The notes beneath the pieces are model-generated. The model ran no database searches. It was given only the letters and a program-made list of their open reading frames with translations, and had not been told where the DNA came from. A program made the translations under genes and the position numbers. Below are positions 5,372 to 62,312 of a DNA stretch of 64,000 nt, piece by piece. The stretch's first letter is position 1. Every line of letters starts with the position of its first letter. This DNA comes from Candidatus Kuenenbacteria bacterium (GTDB lineage: Bacteria > Patescibacteriota > Patescibacteriia > UBA11705 > JABHMO01). The stretch spans positions 14,641 through 78,640 of the forward strand of contig JABMRF010000018.1 in assembly GCA_013202715.1 (NCBI GenBank), in the 5' to 3' direction.

Positions 5372-5680
5372 TTAGTTCTCTCTTATCTCAGCATTTGTTG
5401 TGACAGTCTGTTTTACCTCAAAAGGTTTTTTTATTGATTGTTTGATCTGTTCCGCTTCAACATTATCGTTAACAATAATTTTTTCAGCAGTAATGCTCAC
5501 AATCTGACTTGGTGAAACTAAAAGCACCTGCCCCTTGGTTAAAAGTTTTCGACGCACAACCAGATATTTCATAACGCTGTGGTTTTCGATATCCAGCTCA
5601 AAATCGTCAATATTGCCAAGAAGCAAACCTGATTCAGTCTCAACAGAAAGGTCGCGTAGTTTTTTAAAGTTAATTTTCAT
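5372..5680 (-). CDS. PRC-barrel domain protein
   Basis: 102 aa. The pattern ..LLGNIDDFELD..G.V..LVV.. is typical of PRC barrel proteins of the YlmC/YmxH type. Confidence 0.45.
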   Translation of the reverse strand: MKINFKKLRDLSVETESGLLLGNIDDFELDIENHSVMKYLVVRRKLLTKGQVLLVSPSQIVSITAEKIIVNDNVEAEQIKQSIKKPFEVKQTVTTNAEIREN

Positions 5681-5684
5681 ATTA

Positions 5685-5730
5685 GGCGCGGATTAAACGG
5701 ATCTAACGCGGATTACGCGGAATCTTATAG
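5685..5730. repeat. family A word-repeat element (cgcggat words), half copy
   Basis: Sequence gcgcggattaaacggatctaacgcggattacgcggaa. Confidence 0.6.
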
Positions 5731-5747
5731 AATACTGCATTAATGTT

Positions 5748-8334: not shown

Positions 8335-8480
8335 AGGACAAGAATCAAGGAGCAAAGAGCAAAGCAAGGTCAAAGCATAAAGATAAAAGCATAAAGAATT
8401 TCCGGTTATCTGCTTTTTAGTCCTTATCCCCCTCCTATTGATCTTTCCTTGACCTTTGACCTTTGCCCCTTGCCCTTCCT
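8335..8480. repeat. palindromic word-repeat element (caaag/ctttg words)
   Basis: Left arm gcaaagagcaaagcaaggtcaaagcataaag, right arm ctttccttgacctttgacctttgcc. Confidence 0.55.
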
Positions 8481-8560
8481 GCATAGCAGGCTCTTGCCAA
8501 GTTCATTTATCCATGATAAGATTATAGCAGTCTAATAAATAATAAATATTCTGCACCGAA

Positions 8561-8670: not shown

Positions 8671-9204
8671 ATGAATCAACATTACGAGTTGACCTACATT
8701 GTGTCAATCAAATACATTGAAGATGATCTGCAAAAGGTCATCAAGTCTGTTAATGAAGTAATTGCAAAAGCAAACGGTGAGATTACAAAAGAAACTGACC
8801 TTGGGAAACAGCGACTTGCTTATCCAATCGACCATGCTCATCAGGGAACTTATATTTCTCTTGAGTTTGATATGGAACAGGAAAAACTGCAAGAAACAAA
8901 TACTCTATTGAGATTAATGCCGGAACTACTACGACATTTGATTATTAAAAAGAAAGTTCAAACAGAAGCTGAAATCAAAAAGCAAGAAGATATTCAGGAA
9001 AAAATTAGAAAAGGAAAACAAGAAGAGCTAAAAAAACTTGAAAATGAAACTGAAGTCGGAATAAAAGCAACTGAACCTATCAAAAAGTCAGCTGACGAAA
9101 CCAAGCCAGTTGTAACCAAGAAAGAAAAACCGGCAAAAGAAAAGGTTACCTTGGAGGACTTGGACAAAAAGTTAGATGAAATTTTATCAGACGACATACT
9201 TTAA
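8671..9204 (+). CDS. rpsF: 30S ribosomal protein S6 with a K/E-rich C-terminal extension
   Basis: The ..ELTYIV...........V..........G.I...........LAYPI.....G.Y.. pattern of bS6 is present. Conserved rpsF-ssb-rpsR gene order. Confidence 0.85.
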   Translation: MNQHYELTYIVSIKYIEDDLQKVIKSVNEVIAKANGEITKETDLGKQRLAYPIDHAHQGTYISLEFDMEQEKLQETNTLLRLMPELLRHLIIKKKVQTEAEIKKQEDIQEKIRKGKQEELKKLENETEVGIKATEPIKKSADETKPVVTKKEKPAKEKVTLEDLDKKLDEILSDDIL

Positions 9205-9316
9205 AAATTAAAATGAAAAAGTAAAAACCACATACTTTAAATAGTAAATTCAAAATATTTTTATTTAATAATTTTGACTGTGGTTTTGCATTTTACATTT
9301 TACATTTAAAAACAAT

Positions 9317-9820
9317 ATGGATTTAAACAAAGCAATGCTAATCGGTCGCTTGACTCGCGATCCGGAGGGAAGAACAACACCACAAGGAACTACTGTCGCT
9401 TCATTTTCAGTAGCTACCAACTTTGTGTGGGTTGACGCAAACGGACAAAAACAAGAAAAAGTTGAATATCACAATATCGTTGCCTGGAGAAAATTGGCTG
9501 ACATTTGTACCCAGTACTTGAAAAAAGGAAGCAAGGTCTACATCGAGGGGCGACTACAAACTCGAGATTGGGAAGGCCAAGATGGTGTAAAGCGTTACAG
9601 AACGGAAGTCGTAGCAGACAACATGATCATGCTCGACAGCAAGCCACGAAGTGATTCTTCTGGTTCTGGATACAACCAGGCTCCACCTCCACAGGCAGAA
9701 GCACAACCTGTAATCCAGGTTGATCAATCACCTGTAGAAGGTACTGAGATTCCTGAGGCAAATGCTCCTACTACTAGTGGTAGTGACGATGAAATTAAAG
9801 TTGAAAACATTCCTTTTTAA
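9317..9820 (+). CDS. ssb: single-stranded DNA-binding protein
   Basis: N-terminus MLIGRLTRDPE..R.T..G...A.FS.A.N, an OB fold, a Gly/Pro-rich linker and an acidic C-terminal tail DDEIKVENIPF. Confidence 0.9.
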   Translation: MDLNKAMLIGRLTRDPEGRTTPQGTTVASFSVATNFVWVDANGQKQEKVEYHNIVAWRKLADICTQYLKKGSKVYIEGRLQTRDWEGQDGVKRYRTEVVADNMIMLDSKPRSDSSGSGYNQAPPPQAEAQPVIQVDQSPVEGTEIPEANAPTTSGSDDEIKVENIPF

Positions 9821-9927
9821 ATAAACGCGGATCCACACGGATCAAACGCGGATAATGCGGACCTAAGAAAAAACTTCTTAGTAAATTCCGTTCAATCCGC
9901 GTTATATCCGCTTAATCCGCGCCCCCT
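9821..9927. repeat. family A word-repeat element, full imperfect palindrome
   Basis: Left arm aaacgcggatccacacggatcaaacgcggataatgcgga, right arm ccgttcaatccgcgttatatccgcttaatccgcg. Confidence 0.65.
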
Positions 9928-15865: not shown

Positions 15866-15950
15866 TTTTATGTAAAATGTAAAAGTTAAAAGTATTATTG
15901 GGCCCTATTACTATTAACTTTTACTTTTTACCTTTTACCTATTTTATTCT
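15866..15950. repeat. family D palindromic word repeat (gtaaaag / cttttac)
   Basis: Left arm tgtaaaatgtaaaagttaaaagta, right arm tattaacttttactttttaccttttacc. Confidence 0.6.
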
Positions 15951-16624
15951 TCTGACACCACCACCTGCCTATAAATTACATTTTCTTTGCTGTGTTTCTT
16001 CTGTGCTGATATTTTAATAATATTTAATCCTTTTTGCAAATCCAGCAGCAAGGAAAAATTCCCCTGTTTATCACTCAAAAGTGGTCGCCCGTTAATTTTC
16101 AAATTTACTTCCTTTTCAGTCTGTCCTTGAATTTTGACCTGATGCTCAGTTGTAACTAAATTTTCAGCCGGTGAATTGACAATTAATTCTGGTGGAGATG
16201 TAATCTTGTTAACCGCAGAGCCAATATAAAACAGGACTCCAAGCAGGACAATGATAATACCGATATACTTTAATGTCCTCGGATTCAAAAAATGATTTAT
16301 TACCTTGTATAATCGACTCTCCTTTTTGTTATATTTCTGCTTCTGTGTTTTGATAAAAAGTTCTTTTTCTTTTTTAAATAAATCAACTACTGTATTTGGA
16401 TTCAAATTCAAAAGCTCAGCATAACTTTTCAAAATATTTATGGTATAAACATCAGCCGGCAACTTGTCGTACCTGTTGTGTTCCAAAAGCTTTATATAGC
16501 GTATGTTTAGATTCAAGGCTCTGGACGCTTTTTCTGGCGACAACCCCTTTTCCTGTCGATGCTTTTGCAATCTTTCACCCAATGTTTGTATTGTCTTTAT
16601 CTTTTTTGTTATAAACCCACTCAT
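15944..16624 (-). CDS. XRE-type HTH plus single-TM protein, RodZ-like
   Basis: N-terminal HTH LGERLQKHRQEKGLSPEKASRALNLNIRYIKLLE, then a TM helix and an extracytoplasmic C-terminal domain. This is the RodZ architecture. Confidence 0.45.
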   Translation of the reverse strand: MSGFITKKIKTIQTLGERLQKHRQEKGLSPEKASRALNLNIRYIKLLEHNRYDKLPADVYTINILKSYAELLNLNPNTVVDLFKKEKELFIKTQKQKYNKKESRLYKVINHFLNPRTLKYIGIIIVLLGVLFYIGSAVNKITSPPELIVNSPAENLVTTEHQVKIQGQTEKEVNLKINGRPLLSDKQGNFSLLLDLQKGLNIIKISAQKKHSKENVIYRQVVVSEE

Positions 16625-16629
16625 AGTAA

Positions 16630-16736
16630 TCGCGGATAAAGCGGATCTAACGCGGATAATTCGGACTGCGTTGATTAAAATAACTCACATAATCAATGCA
16701 CTCCGTTATATCCGCATATAATCCGTAAAATCCGCG
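16630..16736. repeat. family A word-repeat element, full palindrome with about 40 nt spacer
   Basis: Left arm cgcggataaagcggatctaacgcggataattcgga, right arm ccgttatatccgcatataatccgtaaaatccgcg. Confidence 0.65.
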
Positions 16737-19169
16737 TCAATAAATTTCGTCTTCAGTACTAGTTCTTTTTTTCTTTTTTGGACTTTCGTCTACTTCTTCT
16801 TCCTCATCCTCCTCGTCTTCTTCATATTCTTCATCTTCTACTTCTTCTTCTGTCTCGTCATCTTCCGCCTCATCATCCTCTGCCTCTTCTTCATTTTCCT
16901 CATCATCTTCCTCGTATTCTTCTTCTGTATTTTCGTCTTCGTATTCTTCTTCATCATCCTCTTCTTCGTCATCTTCCTGTACAGCTTCTTGGCTATGATC
17001 AAATGATTCTTGTTGCGCCATTGCATTAACTTTGTCAACCAAAATCTCACGCGGACGTGCGCCATCTGCTGGTCCGACTATTCCGGCGTCTTCCAATAGG
17101 TCAATCAAACGAGCTGCTCGCGCATATCCAACCCTCAGCCTCCGCTGAAGAAGAGAGGCAGATGCTTTGCCGGCTTGAATAACCAACTGTTTTGCTTCAT
17201 TAAATAAATCATCTTCCCCGCCTCCCTTGAAATCAAAGCTGGTTGACCCGGAACTACTCGGCTTGCTGGTCACGTCATCTAAATATTGTTCTTGACCTCC
17301 AGAGGCCTTTTTCAGAAAATCAACAACCTTTTTGATTTCATTATCACTGACAAAGGCGCCTTGCAATCGACGTGGCTTTGCAGTTTGCGGAGTCATAAAC
17401 AAGCAATCACCTTTTCCAACTAATTTTTCTGCACCTGAAGAATCAAGAATTGTTCTCGAGTCCATCAAAGAGGCTACACTAAACGCCACTCGACATGGAA
17501 TATTTGCTTTGATAAGTCCTGTAATAACATCTACTGACGGCCTCTGTGTTGCTACAACCATATGAATGCCCACAGCTCGCGCCATCTGAGTCAAGCGAAT
17601 AATGCATCCTTCAACTTCTGCCGCGGCGGCAACCATCAAGTCCGCTAATTCGTCAATTATTATTACAATGTAAGGCATTTTTTCTTTGGCCGTTAGATTG
17701 TAACTGGCGATATTTCGTTTCTTGGCTTTAGCAAGTGTGTCAAAGCGAGAATCCATTTCACTGATTGCCCAGCGCAGAGAATAAACCGTTTTTGTTACAT
17801 CAGTAATAACCGGGGTTAATAAGTGAGGAATTCCGTTATAAACAGGAAACTCCACCCTCTTCGGATCAACTAAAATAAATCGCAGGTTATCAGGATTGTT
17901 CTGATACAACAAACTCATGATTATTGCATTTAAACAAACACTCTTACCGGATCCAGTAGCACCGGCAACTAACATGTGAGGCATTGATGATAAATCCTCT
18001 ATCCAGCATTTTCCACTAACATCTTTTCCTAGAGCAACCGACAAATTTGTTTTTCTGTTTTTAAATGTCTTGGTCTGCAGGGTTTCTCTAATGCGAACTA
18101 CGGCAGGTTTCTGATTCGGAACTTCGATTCCAACCAATGACTTTCCTGGAATCGGCGCTTCAATTCTAATCGGATGAGCCGCAAGAGCCAAAGCCAAATC
18201 ATTTCCAAGTGTTGTAATTTTTGAAAGCTTGATTCCTTCTGCCGGCTTCAAGGTGTATTGTGTAACTGTAGGGCCGACCTGGACTGCGCCCATTTCTACA
18301 TCGATATTAAAATTTGCCAATGTTCTGTGAATTCTCTCTGAGCCGACCTTGATATCTCCGCTGGTTGGTTTTGAGCGTTTATCATCAAGAAGACTGAGAG
18401 GTAAATCAATTTTAATTTTTGGCGCTATAATTTTTGACTTCCCCTCTGGCTGACCCCTAGACACGAGGGTACTGGAAGAGACTTTGACATCGCGCACTCG
18501 CGTTGGACTTTCATCCTCGTATTCTTCCTCGTCTTCCTCCTCTTCATATTCCTCCTCGTCATCTTCTTCATCACCATCTTCCATTTCTTTTTTTCTAAAA
18601 CCAAGCCCCCTGAAATCAAATGCATTGGTTTTTTCTAATATTGATTCAAAGCTGGTATTAAACATTAACAAAAATCCCGCAACCAAAAGTCCGATTAAAA
18701 TAATCAAGCTTGCCCAGAATCCCAAATATAACATTAACGGATAATTAACAAGATAACCAATAATTCCGCCTCCCATACCACTAAAAGTTAATTCAAATGA
18801 ATTTGAAAAAGGAATTCTTGAATGAAGTAGACCTTGAAGTCCGATTACAAATAAAAAAATACCAATATAGTTAGGTATTGAAATATCATAACGACTTGGC
18901 CGGGCCAAAACATAACTAAGCAAAACTAAAAACAGAGGGATTAAGTATCTTCCCCAGCCAAAAACAATTCCGAGCGCGTAATCAATATATGTTCCCGCTG
19001 TTCCAGCTAGGCTCAAAAAACTTAAAATGCTAATTATAGAAATTGTAAAAAGTAGAATTACAATAATCCCTTTTTTTGTTTCTGGACTCAGGCTGTAATA
19101 TTCTACATCTTGATAACGGCGTCGCCGCTTTTTTCGTCTTCCCACATTATTTAAAAATGCAAATACCAA
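16737..19169 (-). CDS. ftsK: DNA translocase FtsK/SpoIIIE
   Basis: N-terminal TM domain, motor with Walker A GATGSGKSV and a gamma (winged-helix) domain ..LLQRRLRVGYARAARLIDLLE.. A poly-acidic linker and a long D/E-rich tail follow the gamma domain. Confidence 0.9.
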   Translation of the reverse strand: MVFAFLNNVGRRKKRRRRYQDVEYYSLSPETKKGIIVILLFTISIISILSFLSLAGTAGTYIDYALGIVFGWGRYLIPLFLVLLSYVLARPSRYDISIPNYIGIFLFVIGLQGLLHSRIPFSNSFELTFSGMGGGIIGYLVNYPLMLYLGFWASLIILIGLLVAGFLLMFNTSFESILEKTNAFDFRGLGFRKKEMEDGDEEDDEEEYEEEEDEEEYEDESPTRVRDVKVSSSTLVSRGQPEGKSKIIAPKIKIDLPLSLLDDKRSKPTSGDIKVGSERIHRTLANFNIDVEMGAVQVGPTVTQYTLKPAEGIKLSKITTLGNDLALALAAHPIRIEAPIPGKSLVGIEVPNQKPAVVRIRETLQTKTFKNRKTNLSVALGKDVSGKCWIEDLSSMPHMLVAGATGSGKSVCLNAIIMSLLYQNNPDNLRFILVDPKRVEFPVYNGIPHLLTPVITDVTKTVYSLRWAISEMDSRFDTLAKAKKRNIASYNLTAKEKMPYIVIIIDELADLMVAAAAEVEGCIIRLTQMARAVGIHMVVATQRPSVDVITGLIKANIPCRVAFSVASLMDSRTILDSSGAEKLVGKGDCLFMTPQTAKPRRLQGAFVSDNEIKKVVDFLKKASGGQEQYLDDVTSKPSSSGSTSFDFKGGGEDDLFNEAKQLVIQAGKASASLLQRRLRVGYARAARLIDLLEDAGIVGPADGARPREILVDKVNAMAQQESFDHSQEAVQEDDEEEDDEEEYEDENTEEEYEEDDEENEEEAEDDEAEDDETEEEVEDEEYEEDEEDEEEEVDESPKKKKRTSTEDEIY

Positions 19170-19377: not shown

Positions 19378-19420
19378 TCCGCTTCAATCCGCGTTAGATC
19401 CGCTTTATCCGCATTTATTT
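19378..19420. repeat. family A word repeat (right-arm type)
   Basis: Sequence gtccgcttcaatccgcgttagatccgctttatccgc. Confidence 0.55.
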
Positions 19421-20070: not shown

Positions 20071-20097
20071 ATCTGTTATAATAGAGGAAGTTGATAG

Positions 20098-20168
20098 TTA
20101 AAATGTCAAATGTAAAAGTATAAAAAATTCAGGATAAGTTACTTTTACCTTTTACCTTTTATTTATTA
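20098..20168. repeat. family D palindromic word repeat
   Basis: Left arm aaaatgtcaaatgtaaaagtat, right arm ttacttttaccttttacctttt. Confidence 0.55.
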
Positions 20169-20179
20169 ACTAAATTTTT

Positions 20180-20752
20180 ATGCACTTAATTCCAACAGTA
20201 GTAGAAAAAACACATCATGGCGAAAGAGCTTATGATATTTATTCTCGTTTGCTAAAAGAGAGAATTATTTTTTTGGGAACTCCAATTGACGACCAGGTAG
20301 CGAATTCTGTAATAGCCCAGCTTTTATATTTAGAAAGCGAAGATCCAAAAAAAGATATTAAAATTTACATCAATTCTCCAGGCGGTTCAGTTAGCGCTGG
20401 CCTCGCAATTTACGATACCATGCAGTATATAAAACCTGATGTAATGACAATCTGTGTTGGCATGGCCGCAAGTATGGGATCCCTACTTTTGACTGCCGGT
20501 ACCAAGGGAAAACGCCTTTCCCTGCCAAATTCCAAAGTAATGATTCACCAGGTAATGGGTGGTGCTCAAGGCCAGGCAAGTGATATTAAGATTCAAGCTG
20601 AGGAGATTTTGAAAGTAAAAGAAAACCTAAATCACATCCTAGCTAAACATACTGGACAACCCCTAGCAAAAGTTGAAAAAGATTCAGATCGAGATAACTA
20701 TATGTCAGCCGAGGAAGCAAGAAAGTACGGGTTGATCGATAAGATCATATGA
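20180..20752 (+). CDS. clpP: ATP-dependent Clp protease proteolytic subunit
   Basis: Core sequence ..[57 protein letters not shown].. Confidence 0.95.
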
Positions 20753-23022: not shown

Positions 23023-23067
23023 CCCTAGTTGCCTAATCTCTAATCACTAATTACTAGTCACTATTAT

Positions 23068-26074: not shown

Positions 26075-26232
26075 TTCGACCTCCATTAAATTTTCAAAAT
26101 TCATTTACCAATACTTACAAGTATAGCATACTCTTAACTTTTTGTCAATCGTACTTCCTCGTTTTTATTCAATTTTAGCTAAAAGATGATTCTTATTCAT
26201 CAGTATATCAGTATAATCAGTAATCAATTCTT

Positions 26233-26841
26233 ATGTTAATCGAAATAAACAATCAAACCCCTGAATACCCAAAAATCAAACAAGCAGTTGATCTTATAAA
26301 AAACAACTGCGGTGTTATTGTTTACCCTACCGATACAATCTATGGCTTTGGTTGTGATATTTTTTGCAAGGAAGCTGTAAACCGGATTTATAAAATAAAA
26401 AAGAAAAAACCTACTGGATTTAGTTTCATTTGTCCCGACCTAAAAGAAATTTCAAAATACGCCATTGTTTCAACCTATGCTTATAAAACGATGAAGCGAC
26501 TCTTACCCGGACCATACACTTTTATTTTCAAAGCTACAAAACTTGTTCCAAACGAATTAATTCCAAACAAAAAAACTGTCGCCATTCGAATTCCTGACAA
26601 CCCAGTTTGTCTAGAATTGGTAAAACAACTTGGCAACCCGATTGTCACAACAAGTGTTAATGTTTTCAAACAACCTCACTTTTCTGATCCACTTGAAATT
26701 GAAAAACAGTTTGGTGATCAAGTAGATCTAATTATTGATGCCGGAACGCTCATAAACGAGCCTTCAAGTGTGGTTGATTTGTCCGGTGATGAACCGATTG
26801 TTATTCGTGAAGGAAAGGGGGACGTGAGTTTATTTGAGTAA
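26233..26841 (+). CDS. tsaC: L-threonylcarbamoyladenylate synthase (TsaC/YrdC/Sua5 family)
   Basis: YrdC-domain motifs: ..VYPTDTIYGFGCD......RIY.IK.R....F......P....I...A.......K..L.LLPGP.T. Confidence 0.8.
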   Translation: MLIEINNQTPEYPKIKQAVDLIKNNCGVIVYPTDTIYGFGCDIFCKEAVNRIYKIKKKKPTGFSFICPDLKEISKYAIVSTYAYKTMKRLLPGPYTFIFKATKLVPNELIPNKKTVAIRIPDNPVCLELVKQLGNPIVTTSVNVFKQPHFSDPLEIEKQFGDQVDLIIDAGTLINEPSSVVDLSGDEPIVIREGKGDVSLFE

Positions 26842-35444: not shown

Positions 35445-35480
35445 ACGCGGATCCAGCGGATCAAACGCGGATTAAGCGAA
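35445..35480. repeat. family A word repeat (left-arm type)
   Basis: Sequence acgcggatccagcggatcaaacgcggattaagcgaa. Confidence 0.55.
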
Positions 35481-40253: not shown

Positions 40254-40453
40254 ATAGTTGTAAAGACCACTTCAAATCAACAAAATAGTATATCAAAAAA
40301 CTATAACTTTGTCAATACCGGCCTTTTTTCATTGAAAAAATAATGAATTTGAGTTAGAATGCTAACATAGAACATGGAACATGAAGCATGAAACAACATT
40401 TATCCAGTTGCTCTATGGTCTATGAATAATGCTATATTAATAATAAATTATTT

Positions 40454-40879
40454 ATGAAAAACAAAAAACTTTTACCGTCACTTTTTTATTCAATGCTGGG
40501 AATTTTTATTTTCCTTGTGCTTTATTTTGTAACTCCTTTTACCAGGGAAGTAATGCAAAATATTTTTTGGGTAATAGCAATACTTGGTGGAGTCTTTTTT
40601 ATAATGGGAATACTGCTGATTGTTTTCACGGTTAAACAAAAGATCAAGGGTAAACAGAAAGTATTTCTAATTTTAACCGGAGCGTCAGCTGTTGGTGTCT
40701 TGGTTTTTTCAATTTTGCATAATTTAGTTTACGGACTTTTGATTTTCTTATTTAATGAAAACATCTGGGATAAACTTGGTGGGGAAGAGCCTTTCTTTTT
40801 CATTTTAGCGATATTAGTTTGTCCTGTTGTATTTTTGGTTGGAGTGGTGGGAAGTATTGTTGGTTTTGTTAGAAAATAA
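40454..40879 (+). CDS. small membrane protein (four TM helices)
   Basis: Hydrophobic ORF. The upstream region contains gaacatggaacatgaagcatgaaac words. Confidence 0.4.
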   Translation: MKNKKLLPSLFYSMLGIFIFLVLYFVTPFTREVMQNIFWVIAILGGVFFIMGILLIVFTVKQKIKGKQKVFLILTGASAVGVLVFSILHNLVYGLLIFLFNENIWDKLGGEEPFFFILAILVCPVVFLVGVVGSIVGFVRK

Positions 40880-47303: not shown

Positions 47304-47469
47304 TTATTTCTCCCCAAACTTGTCTAAATTTATGTTAAAGACCGATAAAACATAATATAGCATAAATCAATTTTTGTCAATAGTTACAAAAAACTGTACA
47401 ATTAAGGGGAAGTTGACTAGTTGATTGGTTAATTAGTTAATTGAATTAATTAAGTTAATTTTTTTTCTT

Positions 47470-48444: not shown

Positions 48445-48546
48445 TCTAAAAACTCCAATACTTGATTTCACATAATATACTGACTAACTTATTCCGCCAT
48501 ATTTCGCCTTATTCAGTATATCAATACAATCAGTAATCATTTCTTT

Positions 48547-54202: not shown

Positions 54203-54457
54203 TCAACCACCAGCAACTTCAGTATAATCTTCGGGCGTCCGGTCCCAGTTCGGCATGAAGATCCAGAAGAATAAGTACAAGACCCCCCCTACACCATATC
54301 CAAAGACGGCCGCGAGCCACAGCAGACGAACTGCCCAGGCGGGAACGCCAAAGCAATACGCAAATCCGCCGCAAACTCCGCCAATCCATTTTTCACTTTG
54401 TACTTTTCTCAATTTTCTCTTCATCGAGACCTCCTGTGCCCTTCGAAGCTCTGACAA
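54203..54457 (-). CDS. PspC-domain membrane protein
   Basis: Sequence KWIGGVCGGFAYCFGVPAWAVRLLWL...LYLFFWIFMP has the PspC-domain pattern. Confidence 0.7.
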   Translation of the reverse strand: MSELRRAQEVSMKRKLRKVQSEKWIGGVCGGFAYCFGVPAWAVRLLWLAAVFGYGVGGVLYLFFWIFMPNWDRTPEDYTEVAGG

Positions 54458-54597
54458 GGTACAGAGAGAAGGAGGGCTTTTGCATAAGAACCAAAGAACA
54501 ACCTTTAGCCAAGCTTAATGGAAACTTTTGACATTGTCAAGGAAGTGAATTAAAATAGAACTGATAATTCATAGAACATAGAGCATTCAGATAAGAG

Positions 54598-54788
54598 TTG
54601 TTCCATGCTCCATGTTCCATGCTCCATGTTCCACGCTCCATGTTCCATGCTCCATGTTCCACGCTCCATGTTCCACGCTCCATGTTCCACGCTCCATGTT
54701 CCATGTTCCACGCTCCATGTTCCACGCTCCATGTTCCATGTTCCATGCTCCATGTTCCATGTTCCATGCTCCATGTTCCATGACTCCC
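54598..54788. repeat. heptanucleotide tandem array (CCAYGYT)n, about 27 units
   Basis: ccatgttccatgctccatgttccacgct is repeated. It sits in the divergent promoter region between the PspC-like gene and comM. The ORFs that read 'MEHGTW...' here come from translating the repeat. Confidence 0.85.
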
Positions 54789-54790
54789 TT

Positions 54791-56308
54791 ATGTTTGTAA
54801 AAGTAAATTCCTGCGCCAATATCGGCCTGGATTCAGAATTAGTTGAAGTTGAAGCTGATATCACTTTTAGTGAACAGACAGCTTTTGTGATTGTTGGCCT
54901 ACCCGACGCAGCAGTGCAAGAAGCAAAAGAAAGAGTTGGATTGTCAATTAAAAACAGCGGTTATAAACTACCGCGACATCGAAAAATTGTTAATCTGGCT
55001 CCGGCTGATTTAAGAAAAGAAGGTCCCTGTTTTGATTTAGCAATCGCAATTGCAATTTTAAAAACGTCCGAGCAGTTAATTGCCGAAACTAATGATTGCG
55101 TTTTTATTGGCGAGCTGGCCTTGGACGGAACAACCAAACATACCACCGGAATTTTACCGGCCGCGATTTTTGCCAAACAAAACGGCTACAAAAATCTTTT
55201 TATTCCGGCCGTAAACGCACCGGAAGCAAGTTTAATCTCTGGAATAAATATTTTTCCAGTTGATAATTTGAAACAAGTTGCCCTTCATTTACAAAATTCG
55301 GAAAAAATTACTCCGGTTGATAATAAAGAACCGGAAAATTTAAAACATGATTATAATTTTGAAGTTGATATGGCTCATGTGCAAGGGCAAGAGCAAGCAA
55401 AGCGCGCCTTGGAAATAGCCGCGGCCGGAGCTCATAACGTTCTCATGAGCGGTCCGCCCGGATCTGGAAAAACCCTGTTGGCCAGAACATTGCCTTCAAT
55501 TTTGCCGGCAATGGGAGAGGATGAAATCCTGGAGGTGACGAAAGTTTATTCCATCGCCGGACTTCTACCCAAAACAAATCCGGTTATAACTCAGCGACCG
55601 TTCCGCTCTCCGCATCATACCAGCTCTGGCGTGGCCCTAGTTGGCGGAGGGAGAATTCCCAGCCCGGGTGAAATCAGTTTAGCTCACCGCGGAATCCTTT
55701 TTCTGGACGAATTTCCTGAATTCCAGAGACAAGTTCTAGAAAATTTAAGGCAACCGCTCGAAGACGGCGTGATTTCAGTTTCCAGAGCGCAAGGAACTTT
55801 ATCTTTTCCGGCTCGATTCACTCTGATCGCCAGTCAAAATCCCTGCCCATGCGGATATTATTCTGATCCAGATAAAAATTGTGTTTGCTCTCCTTCTCAA
55901 ATCATTAAATACAACAATAAAATTTCCGGCCCGATTCTTGATCGCATTGATTTGCATATTGAAGTGCCAAGAATTGATTTTGACAAAATGCAACAAACCG
56001 GTGGCAATGAACCTTCAGAAAAAATAAGAGCGCGAGTAGAAAAGGTTCACAAAATGCAAAGGCAAAGATTCAAAGATACTTCCATCAAATATAATTCTGA
56101 GATGGGACCGCAAAACATTAGAACATTTTGCCAACTTGACGAGCAATCACTAGAACTAATGAAATCGGCGGTCAATCAGCTCCATTTATCTGCTCGTTCA
56201 TTTCACCGAATTCTAAAAATCTCCAGAACAATTGCCGACCTCGAAGATTCAGAAAATATTACTTCAACTCATATTGCCGAAGCTCTTCAATATAGATCCT
56301 TACGTTAA
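54791..56308 (+). CDS. comM: YifB/ComM family Mg-chelatase-like AAA+ ATPase
   Basis: N-terminal domain ..LVEVEADI..GLP.F.IVGLPDAAVQEAKERV......G...P...I.VNLAPAD..KEG..FDLAIA. Walker A is LMSGPPGSGKT. The true start is the ATG at 54791. The annotated N-terminus is repeat-derived. Confidence 0.9.
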   Translation: MFVKVNSCANIGLDSELVEVEADITFSEQTAFVIVGLPDAAVQEAKERVGLSIKNSGYKLPRHRKIVNLAPADLRKEGPCFDLAIAIAILKTSEQLIAETNDCVFIGELALDGTTKHTTGILPAAIFAKQNGYKNLFIPAVNAPEASLISGINIFPVDNLKQVALHLQNSEKITPVDNKEPENLKHDYNFEVDMAHVQGQEQAKRALEIAAAGAHNVLMSGPPGSGKTLLARTLPSILPAMGEDEILEVTKVYSIAGLLPKTNPVITQRPFRSPHHTSSGVALVGGGRIPSPGEISLAHRGILFLDEFPEFQRQVLENLRQPLEDGVISVSRAQGTLSFPARFTLIASQNPCPCGYYSDPDKNCVCSPSQIIKYNNKISGPILDRIDLHIEVPRIDFDKMQQTGGNEPSEKIRARVEKVHKMQRQRFKDTSIKYNSEMGPQNIRTFCQLDEQSLELMKSAVNQLHLSARSFHRILKISRTIADLEDSENITSTHIAEALQYRSLR

Positions 56309-58537: not shown

Positions 58538-58700
58538 ATATGTTGCCTTATCAAAATAGCAGAATTAACCCAAAAAGTCAAAGGCTTGGGACAAACGTCA
58601 ATTGTGCGTCACCTCTTGCTTTTTTTATAAAAATAGGGTAGTATACTTATGAAACTAAAAATAAAAACTTGATCTTTCTTGATCTTTTCTAAAAAACCCT

Positions 58701-59213: not shown

Positions 59214-59292
59214 GCATCTTAAACAAAACAGAGGGCAGTAATTAGCAAATATTAACGCTATTTTCTAATTATTGTTTTCTGTTCTTTGAATT

Positions 59293-59985
59293 ATGAAAAA
59301 AGATTTTTCAAAAATTCAGAAAAGAATTAAAATCAAATTTAAAAATCTGGATTTACTAACCCAGTCAATGGTTCATCGTTCATATTTAAATGAACATCCC
59401 AGTTTTGAATTGGATCACAATGAACGCCTGGAATTTTTGGGTGACGCAGTACTGGAATTGGTTGTCACGGAAAATATTTACCTTAATTATGAAAACCCTG
59501 AAGGAGAGTTAACCAATTGGCGAGCAAGCTTAGTAAATAGTAAAATGCTGGCCAGAGTAGCTGAAGAACTTGAAATTGAAGAATATCTATTCCTGAGCCG
59601 AGGAGAACAAAAAGACACCGGGAAAGCCAGACAATATATTTTGGCAAATGCAATGGAAGCGCTAATTGGCTCAATCTACCTGGACCAGGGATGGGATAAA
59701 TCAAAAAAATTCATTGAGACCTTTATTTTGACAAAACTACCTGATATACTTGAAAACAAATTATATTTAGACCCGAAAAGTACTTTTCAAGAACTTGCCC
59801 AGGAAAAGGCTGGTACCACTCCAAATTACAAAGTTTTGAAAGAATATGGACCTGATCATTCAAAAACTTTTGAAATTGGCGTTTATTTAAAAAGCGAATT
59901 AATTGCAGAAGGAAAAGGGTCCAGTAAACAAGAAGCCCAAGAAGATGCGGCTAGAAATGGATTGGAAAAACAGGGGTGGTCGTAG
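59293..59985 (+). CDS. rnc: ribonuclease III
   Basis: Signature ERLEFLGDAVLELVVTE. dsRBD at the C-terminus. Confidence 0.9.
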   Translation: MKKDFSKIQKRIKIKFKNLDLLTQSMVHRSYLNEHPSFELDHNERLEFLGDAVLELVVTENIYLNYENPEGELTNWRASLVNSKMLARVAEELEIEEYLFLSRGEQKDTGKARQYILANAMEALIGSIYLDQGWDKSKKFIETFILTKLPDILENKLYLDPKSTFQELAQEKAGTTPNYKVLKEYGPDHSKTFEIGVYLKSELIAEGKGSSKQEAQEDAARNGLEKQGWS

Positions 59986-61084: not shown

Positions 61085-61180
61085 AACGGTACGGATTACA
61101 GATTGCTACAGATGTACAGATTCATAACTATAACCTTAAATCCGTACATCCGTATTTGATCCGTAATCTGTAAATCTATG
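61085..61180. repeat. family C palindromic word repeat (tacagat/atctgta, atccgta/tacggat)
   Basis: Left arm ggtacggattacagattgctacagatgtacagatt, right arm aaatccgtacatccgtatttgatccgtaatctgtaaatct. Confidence 0.6.
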
Positions 61181-61807
61181 AAACATTACATTGCTATCGC
61201 GGGAAATATCGGCGCAGGAAAAACTGTCATTTCAAAAAAGTTGGCTAAACATTTTGATTGGCAACTATATCAGGAACCATTTCAGGAAAATCCATACTTG
61301 CGTGATTATTATAATGATATGACAAAATGGGCATTTAAATGCGAAATGTTCTTTCTCGGAAGACGCCTGCAAGATCACCTAGAAATACTTGAAAGTGCTA
61401 ATGTCACGATTCAAGACCGCTGTATTTACGAAGGTGCAGAAATTTTTGTTAAAAATCTGTATTTGAACGGCCATTTAGCTGAAACTGACTGGCAAAATTA
61501 CAATAACCTATATCAATCTATTAAAAAAACAATTACTCCACCGGATTTAATCGTCTATGTAAAATCTTCAACTGATCGTTGTCTGAAAAATATAAATAAA
61601 AGAAACCGCAACGTGGAATTTCATATGAGCTCAGACTATATCGCCAACTTGAACAAGCTTTACGAAGAATGGATCAAAAGCTTTGATCTTTGTCCGATTT
61701 TAATTGCAGATGCTGACAATAATGAATTCAAGTATGTCGAAAACGATTTTGTAAATTTAGCAAACCAGATTCAAGATAGTTTGGAAAAACAAATTACCAA
61801 ACAATAG
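61178..61807 (+). CDS. deoxynucleoside kinase (dCK/dGK family)
   Basis: P-loop IAIAGNIGAGKT. Contains the ..F.E.....R..YL.. and DR pattern of the dNK family. Confidence 0.7.
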   Translation: MKHYIAIAGNIGAGKTVISKKLAKHFDWQLYQEPFQENPYLRDYYNDMTKWAFKCEMFFLGRRLQDHLEILESANVTIQDRCIYEGAEIFVKNLYLNGHLAETDWQNYNNLYQSIKKTITPPDLIVYVKSSTDRCLKNINKRNRNVEFHMSSDYIANLNKLYEEWIKSFDLCPILIADADNNEFKYVENDFVNLANQIQDSLEKQITKQ

Positions 61808-62232: not shown

Positions 62233-62312
62233 AGTTAAACATTATCGAATTAGTTCCTCACTCCTGTGGGTCCATCCTTTCGACTTTTAACTTTTACCTT
62301 TTCACTGTTTTT

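Follow-up and report, generated by a model that had tools for sequence, protein, structure and literature searches.

Heptanucleotide tandem repeats in front of bacterial genes have been described in several systems. In Haemophilus influenzae, an (ATCTTTC)n array is transcribed in the 5′ untranslated region (5′ UTR) of hmw1A, its hairpin is processed by RNase III, and expression drops as the repeats lengthen (PMC12721329). TAACTGA repeats of marine Beggiatoaceae, Cyanobacteria, and Bacteroidetes are located just upstream of starts without ribosome-binding sites (MacGregor 2015, PMC4679880); these and the Nostoc-type heptamers occupy many loci per genome, usually in 2–6 copies with occasional long arrays of up to 43, and proteins suggested to bind them are S1, cold-shock proteins (Csp), and CsrA. 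The heptamers of Nostoc PCC7120 are also located near start codons (bioRxiv 10.1101/2022.06.06.494920). Among long prokaryotic simple sequence repeats (SSRs) with units of 5–11 nucleotides (nt), heptamers are the most abundant, and slippage is a possible cause (Mrazek 2007, as summarized in PMC4679880). In Vibrio cholerae, 3–8 TTTTGAT heptads upstream of the −35 element of ctxAB are bound by ToxT and H-NS, vary among strains, and affect expression (bioRxiv 10.1101/2021.05.14.444153). Here, we analyzed a heptanucleotide array upstream of comM in Candidatus Kuenenbacteria bacterium, an uncultured bacterium of groundwater type, located in a 64,000-nt stretch of contig JABMRF010000018.1 (positions 14,641 to 78,640 of the forward strand), hereafter called the window. 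The array is a repeat of the predicted 5′ UTR beside a start codon, a known kind of element; no earlier description of a start-codon-adjacent 5′-UTR heptamer repeat in Patescibacteria was found in the searchable literature. The locus is laid out as follows:

54528–54556, plus strand: predicted sigma70-type comM promoter (−35 TTGACA at 54528–54533, 17-nt spacer, −10 TAAAAT at 54551–54556).
54570–54586, plus strand: CATAGAACATAGAGCAT, a short purine-rich segment that repeats two array units in inverted, degenerate form, about 14 nt after the −10.
54601–54782, plus strand: array of 26 YTCCAYG units, uninterrupted and in perfect 7-nt register, 182 bp.
54783–54790, plus strand: 8-nt spacer, ACTCCCTT, between the array end and the comM ATG, with no Shine-Dalgarno motif.
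54791–56308, plus strand: comM/YifB, Mg-chelatase-like AAA+ ATPase of 505 amino acids (PF13541, PF01078, PF13335).
54203–54424, minus strand: PspC-domain small membrane protein of 73 amino acids, with AGGAGG 5 nt before its ATG, divergent from comM.

Judged by this layout, hmw1A is the closest experimentally characterized analogue, and the TAACTGA and Nostoc heptamers are the closest descriptive ones. As in hmw1A/hmw2A, a pyrimidine-rich 7-nt unit is repeated in more than 10 tandem copies between promoter and start codon (here, by the predicted promoter), a complementary purine-rich leader segment permits a hairpin, and an rnc gene is present in this genome. The long hmw hairpin comprises about 10 repeats and a G-rich arm, whereas the hairpin predicted here involves about 2 complementary units (13 pairs); hmw1A is an adhesin gene of a host-adapted pathogen, whereas comM belongs to an environmental bacterium of the candidate phyla radiation (CPR), and the unit sequences are unrelated. 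Like the Beggiatoaceae and Nostoc repeats, the array ends close to (8 nt before) an ATG without a canonical ribosome-binding site, and shorter repeats are placed in the same manner before the starts at 9317, 20180, 23068, and 62313. Those genomes, however, reuse one unit (TAACTGA or TTTTGAA), whereas YTCCAYG/GAACATG occurs at two loci in 64 kb and the units vary both by locus (YTCCAYG, CTTTTAC, CTAATCA, ATCCGCG-type, ATCAGTA-type) and by orthologue; the phylum (Patescibacteria) and the copy number (26 versus the usual 2–6) also differ. With the long-SSR class (units of 5–11 nt), including the short tandemly repeated repetitive (STRR) heptamers of cyanobacteria, the array shares a non-coding position and a length far above chance, although this class is a descriptive one without defined function and adds no unit-level homology here. 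The ctxAB heptads are likewise a 7-bp tandem unit upstream of a gene, but the comM array lies downstream of the predicted promoter, not upstream of the −35.

The 26 units comprise CTCCATG (A, 11 copies), TTCCATG (B, 9 copies), and TTCCACG (C, 6 copies) in the order BABACABACACACABCACABBABBAB. The variant units fall in higher-order blocks, dominantly of 14 nt and in some cases of 21 nt, a pattern typical of repeated slippage or duplication, and we regard an origin of the array by replication slippage as very likely. Tandem Repeats Finder (TRF) reported it at 54599–54782 with a period of 14, 13.1 copies, 92% matches, and a score of 270. The original prediction, made from the letters of the window, of a slippage-prone heptanucleotide array between two divergent genes was borne out by the register parse and TRF; it had given about 27 CCAYGYT units up to 54788, which is the same unit in another rotation, and the count is corrected to 26 and the end to 54782. 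The G+C content of the array is 52%, compared with 38% for the window. A degenerate two-unit pattern (up to 2 mismatches) matched 29 times in the window versus 2.85 ± 1.64 times in shuffles, the matches beyond the array being the inverted copy (54570–54583) and 4–5 degenerate copies at 40366–40393. Simple-sequence arrays had also been called unusual in this genome: this is indeed the only long array in the window, and no exact period-7 run of 3 or more copies was found elsewhere in it, but short imperfect period-7 repeats are abundant, with 23 TRF rows versus 1.9 expected from Markov-1 shuffles (about 12-fold). Period-14 rows were likewise in excess (8 versus 0.4 expected).

Read in any phase, the unit lacks a stop codon, and all six frames are open across the array, which therefore generates spurious open reading frames (ORFs) of 61–104 amino acids and a false, extended comM ORF of 567 amino acids. 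ATG codons of the array are found in each of the three forward frames, of which one leads on into comM and two close beside its start codon, at TGA 54781–54783 and TAA 54798–54800. With ATGs in every frame, the array is neutral to the reading frame, and an on/off frameshift switch is impossible. These open frames could nevertheless mean that the array is translated, either as an N-terminal extension of ComM (ORF 54605–56308, 567 amino acids) or as a minus-strand MEHGTWN-repeat peptide (GGAG-N8-ATG): one ATG in three shares the comM frame, and the minus-strand units place GGAG 8 nt before ATG. Variation occurs at the same two unit positions whatever the codon phase, however, so there is no codon-level constraint, and no promoter that would read into the array on the minus strand was found. 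All 120 ComM homologues among the matches listed are 490–523 amino acids long, and the closest begin at the same MF(V/A)K without an extension. The window ComM is 100% identical to an annotated Candidatus Kuenenbacteria bacterium YifB protein of 505 amino acids, and the comM start predicted at 54791 is supported by the Pfam domains and by orthologue alignments beginning at residue 1. A coding array is extremely improbable.

The predicted comM promoter matches the consensus at 11 of 12 positions, is the sole strong promoter-like site of the region, and lies entirely upstream of the array. We aligned the upstream region with those of four orthologous lineages (L204, L205, L208, and L209) and found that only the TTTTGAC and TAnAAT columns were invariant, with a fixed spacing of 17 nt. 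The invariance of hexamers and spacing while all else has diverged is good comparative evidence of a functional comM promoter. Transcription would most likely start at about 54563–54566, giving a leader of about 226 nt. Since the promoter is upstream, the ATG follows the array after 8 nt, and no −10-like hexamer was found inside the array, the array very probably lies in the comM 5′ UTR, as judged from the sequence.

This placement bears on the original prediction, which had read the locus as a classic contingency locus: an array in or between the pspC and comM core promoters, whose slippage would switch one or both genes by changing promoter spacing. This idea agrees with the place of the array in the gap between divergent genes, with a period not divisible by 3, and with the long near-perfect repeats; promoter heptads are also known in V. 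cholerae ctxAB (TTTTGAT; bioRxiv 10.1101/2021.05.14.444153). However, the conserved −35 and −10 of comM are wholly upstream of the array, which reaches to 8 nt from the ATG without offering a −10-like hexamer. The −35 is part of a palindrome, TTGACATTGTCAA (54528–54540), with equivalents in L205 and L209 (TTGAC(A/T)TTGTCAA); its other half offers a minus-strand −35 for pspC, followed by a weak −10 (TAAGCT in the window, TACTTT in L209). This likely pspC −35 is about 60 bp from the array, which thus lies outside the likely pspC core promoter too, and this layout lends no support to an effect of unit number on promoter spacing for either gene. Contingency loci carry their repeat in an ORF or within or between core promoter elements, whereas the present array is frame-neutral and stands between the −10 and the ATG. 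The prediction had made its case depend on the transcription starts of both genes; the predicted starts fall outside the array. Furthermore, the pspC-bearing lineages L209–L211 have no comparable array upstream of pspC, and neither comM nor pspC is a typical surface or host-interaction contingency gene. We consider a contingency locus of this type very unlikely. The palindromic −35 is also present in L205, a lineage without pspC. In eight Chloroflexota comM loci (L021, L023, L032, L034, L037, L045, L051, and L054), TTGAC(A/T)-N17-TACACT/TAAACT ends 5–8 nt before the ATG, so the comM mRNAs of Anaerolineae and Dehalococcoidia would be nearly leaderless.

Within the leader, folding predicts that the purine-rich segment at 54570–54586 pairs with the array stretch AUGCUC.AUGUUC; the two helices, of 6 bp each, flank one mismatch, and the pairing can take several registers. 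The resulting 5′ hairpin (first 78 nt of the leader) has a minimum free energy of −18.7 kcal/mol and a z-score of −3.28, and the leader as a whole is no more structured than shuffles (z 0.01). An Rfam scan of the whole window returned tRNAs only, and a permissive scan of 54400–54900 gave chance-level matches (E 0.16–0.95). A counterpart of the comM leader is found in front of a membrane ORF of 141 amino acids that starts at 40454:

40332–40360, plus strand: promoter-like site TTGAAA-17-TAGAAT, directly upstream of the run below.
40366–40393, plus strand: degenerate GAACATG run of 4–5 units, CATAGAACATGGAACATGAAGCATGAAAC, with 1–2 mismatches.
40407–40425, plus strand: two-unit complement of this run, GCTCTATGGTCTATG, preceding the ORF.

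Four copies of gaacatg had been predicted upstream of this gene; they are present, but degenerate. Because the promoter-like site directly precedes the run, the run would form the 5′ end of the ORF mRNA, and the site repeats the comM leader layout in miniature: promoter-like site, GAACATG run, complement, and ORF. The sequence after the promoter-like site, CATAGAACATGGAACAT, matches 54570–54586 at 15 of 17 positions. The predicted hairpin between 40366 and 40407 is not significant against shuffles (z −0.85). One could regard GAACATG instead as a DNA-level operator or activator site for small membrane or envelope-stress genes (pspC and the 141-amino-acid ORF), amplified into an array at pspC. 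Read on the sense strand, the motif does precede both membrane-protein genes, three units make 21 bp or two helical turns, and heptads bound by ToxT and H-NS offer a precedent. The positions speak otherwise: the 40366 motif follows the predicted −10 and would open the mRNA, and the array is downstream of the comM promoter and at least 60 bp upstream of the putative pspC −35. The pspC-bearing relatives do not have the motif, the ORF at 40454 has no PspC domain or any other Pfam match, and no candidate regulator was identified. To our knowledge, 26 sites is far above the number in any known operator, and we judge a protein-binding array to be highly improbable. A DNA uptake sequence tied to comM was also considered and rejected, because no more than two loci in 64 kb carry the motif.

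The leader was next compared with those of orthologous comM genes in four close lineages: L204, L205 (with L207), L208, and L209 (to L211), whose proteins are 70–74% identical to the window ComM. Tandem periodicity was assessed by shuffle-based p values in the 60 nt upstream of each start, and in the window a Shine-Dalgarno motif was defined as AGGA, GGAG, or GAGG in the 15 nt from −18 to −4. No Shine-Dalgarno motif precedes comM in the window or in the four lineages. The comM leader repeats are:

Window: YTCCAYG, 26 copies.
L204: CTTTTAA TTTTTCC CTTTTCC CTTTTAA CTTTTTT (CTTTTMM, about 5 copies), p = 0.017.
L205/L207: ATCCTAA(N1–2), 5 copies, p = 0.002 for L205.
L209–L211: ATTCGTA, 5 copies, p = 0.01 for L209.
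L208 (73% identity): weak periodicity only, p = 0.105.

In L204, L205/L207, and L209–L211, the repeats end 3–9 nt before the comM ATG, and among the neighboring genes of these lineages, only 2 of 24 reach a p value of 0.05. Among 80 more distant comM loci, several of Patescibacteria also had period-7 leaders (L006 and L008, p = 0.003 each; L014, L016, and L033). The YTCCAYG unit itself was absent from these 80 loci, which come from species-representative genomes and among which the best relative is 61% identical. The window array is, on this comparison of sequences, a lineage-specific, strongly expanded form (26 versus about 5 copies) of a recurring repeat-before-start-codon leader.

The same comparison bears on the main rival, a neutral runaway repeat: the array could be a product of slippage in a genome prone to 7-nt duplications, in a leader insensitive to length. 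Complete replacement of the unit sequence between lineages and the L208 leader without a repeat speak for neutrality. Against it, repeats stand at the same position before comM in four of five close lineages (the window included) and in several distant ones, and rarely before the neighboring genes.

Similar repeats occur throughout the window. Imperfect repeats with periods of 7–10 nt and 2–5 copies end 4–27 nt before starts that lack a Shine-Dalgarno motif, and most of the short period-7 repeats are intergenic, mostly just upstream of such genes, with many ending 4–18 nt before the start:

9284–9307, 20142–20161, 23033–23063, and 62283–62306: period-7 leader repeats before the starts at 9317, 20180, 23068, and 62313, respectively.
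26199–26226, 47418–47460, and 58668–58687: leader analogues with periods of 8 to 10 nt before the starts at 26233, 47470, and 58701, respectively.

Nineteen of 77 upstream 60-nt regions were periodic at p ≤ 0.05 (8 at p ≤ 0.01), compared with 5 of 58 coding controls (2 at p ≤ 0.01). A Shine-Dalgarno motif was present in none of 16 repeat-bearing leaders and in 13 of 61 others (Fisher p = 0.059). G is scarce in the leaders with repeats (12.5% versus 18% overall). That the repeats gather within 60 nt ahead of starts, not in coding sequence, and avoid genes with a Shine-Dalgarno motif is a second argument against neutrality; together with the recurrence at comM, it suggests selection for, or strong local tolerance of, repetitive leaders.

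The distribution of the unit in other genomes is on the side of neutrality. We scanned metagenome contigs of the Joint Genome Institute (JGI) for four consecutive YTCCAYG units and found at least 120 contigs, with G+C contents of 34–73%, arrays of up to 37 units, and varied contexts; many also carry other, unrelated heptamer arrays. In a control with viral contigs, the real unit gave 20 stretches and three composition-matched permutations gave 14, 43, and 5; since the permutations are about as frequent, heptamer arrays are generic, the unit is not special, and we rejected YTCCAYG as a special conserved motif. A uniform context was rejected as well, because orientation and position relative to genes vary: the array abuts the −35 of a gene with a Shine-Dalgarno motif in L203, follows directly after a stop codon in L086 and L161, and is paired with an inverted array in L133 and L108. 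Heptanucleotides are, moreover, the most abundant class of long prokaryotic repeats and have been ascribed to slippage (Mrazek 2007, as far as PMC4679880 relates it). With these points on both sides, we regard a neutral runaway repeat as somewhat unlikely.

Other assemblies of the organism reach the array from the left. Three independently made assemblies of other samples (L001–L003) agree exactly with the window in the left boundary and the first 4–7 units; their contigs, from the same strain, end 4–7 units into the array, and the contig of L212 ends inside comM. No array-spanning contig emerged when both flanks were searched by BLAST against all retrieved loci. Exact-protein look-ups for ComM (505 and 567 amino acids) and P0001 gave no match, and those for PspC and LysM-M23 gave L001–L003 and L212. 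An array of 182 bp is longer than many short reads. L001–L003 are short-read assemblies, and for this organism the array is a consistent point of breakage in assemblies, at the junction of pspC and comM.

We propose, with moderate confidence, that the array is a heptanucleotide repeat, expanded by slippage in the comM 5′ leader, that would act at the RNA level. Transcription from the promoter at 54528–54556 would proceed through the purine-rich segment (54570–54586) and the 26 units to the comM AUG 8 nt later. The G-poor, pyrimidine-rich, weakly structured repeat RNA would serve as a ribosome-loading region for the Shine-Dalgarno-less comM, with ribosomal protein S1 or a cold-shock-type protein with an oligonucleotide/oligosaccharide-binding (OB) fold as candidate binders. 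The complementary segment near the 5′ end could pair with the array in several alternative registers to give a hairpin, and gain or loss of units would alter leader length and hairpin geometry and thereby produce graded changes in comM mRNA stability or translation, like a dial and not a promoter switch. That copy number actually tunes comM expression is a more tentative proposal, drawn by analogy with hmw1A, and we would not put it at even odds.

Several findings weigh against this proposal. The anticorrelation between repeats and Shine-Dalgarno motifs is marginal. L208 has no clear repeat, which means that comM expression does not require one. The contexts of YTCCAYG arrays vary among genomes in orientation and position, and no common function would follow from them; the frequency of the control heptamers fits generic, possibly neutral slippage. 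In addition, the count of 26 comes from the one array-spanning assembly, and the transcription start is placed by conservation only.

A broader and rather unlikely version of the proposal is that tandem 7–10-nt repeats beside starts form a distinct, selected class of leaders for initiation at Shine-Dalgarno-less genes in this branch of Patescibacteria, in which repetitiveness is kept while units turn over; the comM leader would then be a persistent hotspot, and the 26-unit array an extreme state with heritable, slippage-driven tuning. What is kept could be a G-poor, unstructured platform whose unit fits the stretch of about 7 nt bound by an OB-fold protein, for example S1 or a cold-shock protein. 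A motif search of the six-frame translation, limited to the window, turned up no gene for CsrA or a cold-shock domain. In Parcubacteria, the anti-Shine-Dalgarno motif is reported to be partly lost and the S1 protein to be shortened (PMC9297842), and a selected class of leaders may relate to this reduced S1 and partly missing anti-Shine-Dalgarno.

The genes around the array are arranged in a conserved order. The succession dksA-like, lspA, glutaredoxin-like, [pspC], comM, LysM-M23 (minus strand), nusB, and rnc is kept in the relatives with 70–74% ComM identity, among which pspC was found in one lineage only (L209–L211); its presence in the window and L209–L211 only means that it was gained or lost within the clade. 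The pspC-like gene had been predicted to start at 54457, where a TTG stands, but the ATG at 54424 is the likelier start, with AGGAGG upstream and the exact 73-amino-acid product called in four other assemblies. In L209–L211, comM and the LysM-M23 peptidase gene are separated by an inserted gene, at about 2160–2840, with a faint match to Y1 transposases (IS200/IS605-type). RNase III is encoded in the window by rnc at 59293–59985 (Pfam annotation of the identical gene in L212). Immediately before its start, at about 59215–59292, an inverted repeat, AACAGARGGCAGTAATTAG ... CTAATTATTGTTTTCTGTT, is kept in four lineages (the window, L204, L205, and L208). An autoregulatory leader hairpin is known for E. 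coli rnc, and by analogy the inverted repeat is probably such a hairpin. The nusB leader (start 58701) carries two copies of TTGATCTTT, at 58668–58687 in the window, 6120–6137 in L204, and about 4390–4420 in L209; its repeat unit is the same across lineages, in contrast to that of the comM leader.

Other repeated elements were observed elsewhere in the window. The word CTTTTAC/GTAAAAG is present at seven sites, and inverted heptamer runs such as (GTAAAAG)n ... (CTTTTAC)n are predicted to form intergenic hairpins, a layout that the comM leader shares and that is also seen in the metagenome loci L133 and L108. A dispersed motif family, ATCCGCG(W)T / CGCGGAT, occurs in 2–3 repeats with a period of 9–11, often just upstream of starts:

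15866–15944, minus strand: inverted-heptamer hairpin, fold z −4.5.
9198–9319, plus strand: inverted-heptamer hairpin, fold z −3.9.
8340–8482, minus strand: inverted-heptamer hairpin, fold z −2.7.
20095–20182, plus strand: inverted-heptamer hairpin, fold z −0.8.
5681–5740 (minus strand), 16625–16680 (minus strand), and 61130–61177 (plus strand): ATCCGCG-type sites preceding the genes at 5372–5680, 15944–16624, and 61178–61807, respectively.
9889–9921, 19387–19418, and 35445–35472: further ATCCGCG-type sites.

Two unrelated genes, at 26233 and 48547, share a near-identical leader of about 35 nt, TCAGTATATCARTAYAATCAGTAATCAWTTCTT(T)ATG (26199–26232 and 48512–48546), with ATCAGTA-like repeats, and the words ATCAGTAG and ATCATGTAG, akin to this leader, lie upstream of the genes at 172–1479, 1599, and 10267. 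A (TTC)n-like tract at 16785–16976 (64 copies, 67% match, 27-nt sub-period) lies inside an ORF of 810 amino acids (16737–19169, minus strand) and probably encodes an acidic, Glu/Asp-rich low-complexity region.

By itself, the array is a typical example of a long heptanucleotide repeat, and in practical terms it breaks short-read assemblies and invites false ORF calls. The comparative result, that the position of the repeat is kept at comM while its unit is replaced, is more useful than the array alone, and about a quarter of the upstream regions of the window have similar short repeats, where Shine-Dalgarno motifs are absent. If the selected class of leaders is real, it would mean slippage-driven, heritable tuning of comM, a gene of DNA uptake and recombination. 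Should the rest of the genome show the same pattern, it would help to address the preference for heptamers among long prokaryotic repeats, a question that dates from 2007, and would provide a handle on Shine-Dalgarno-independent initiation in CPR bacteria, which have reduced ribosomes and in part no anti-Shine-Dalgarno.

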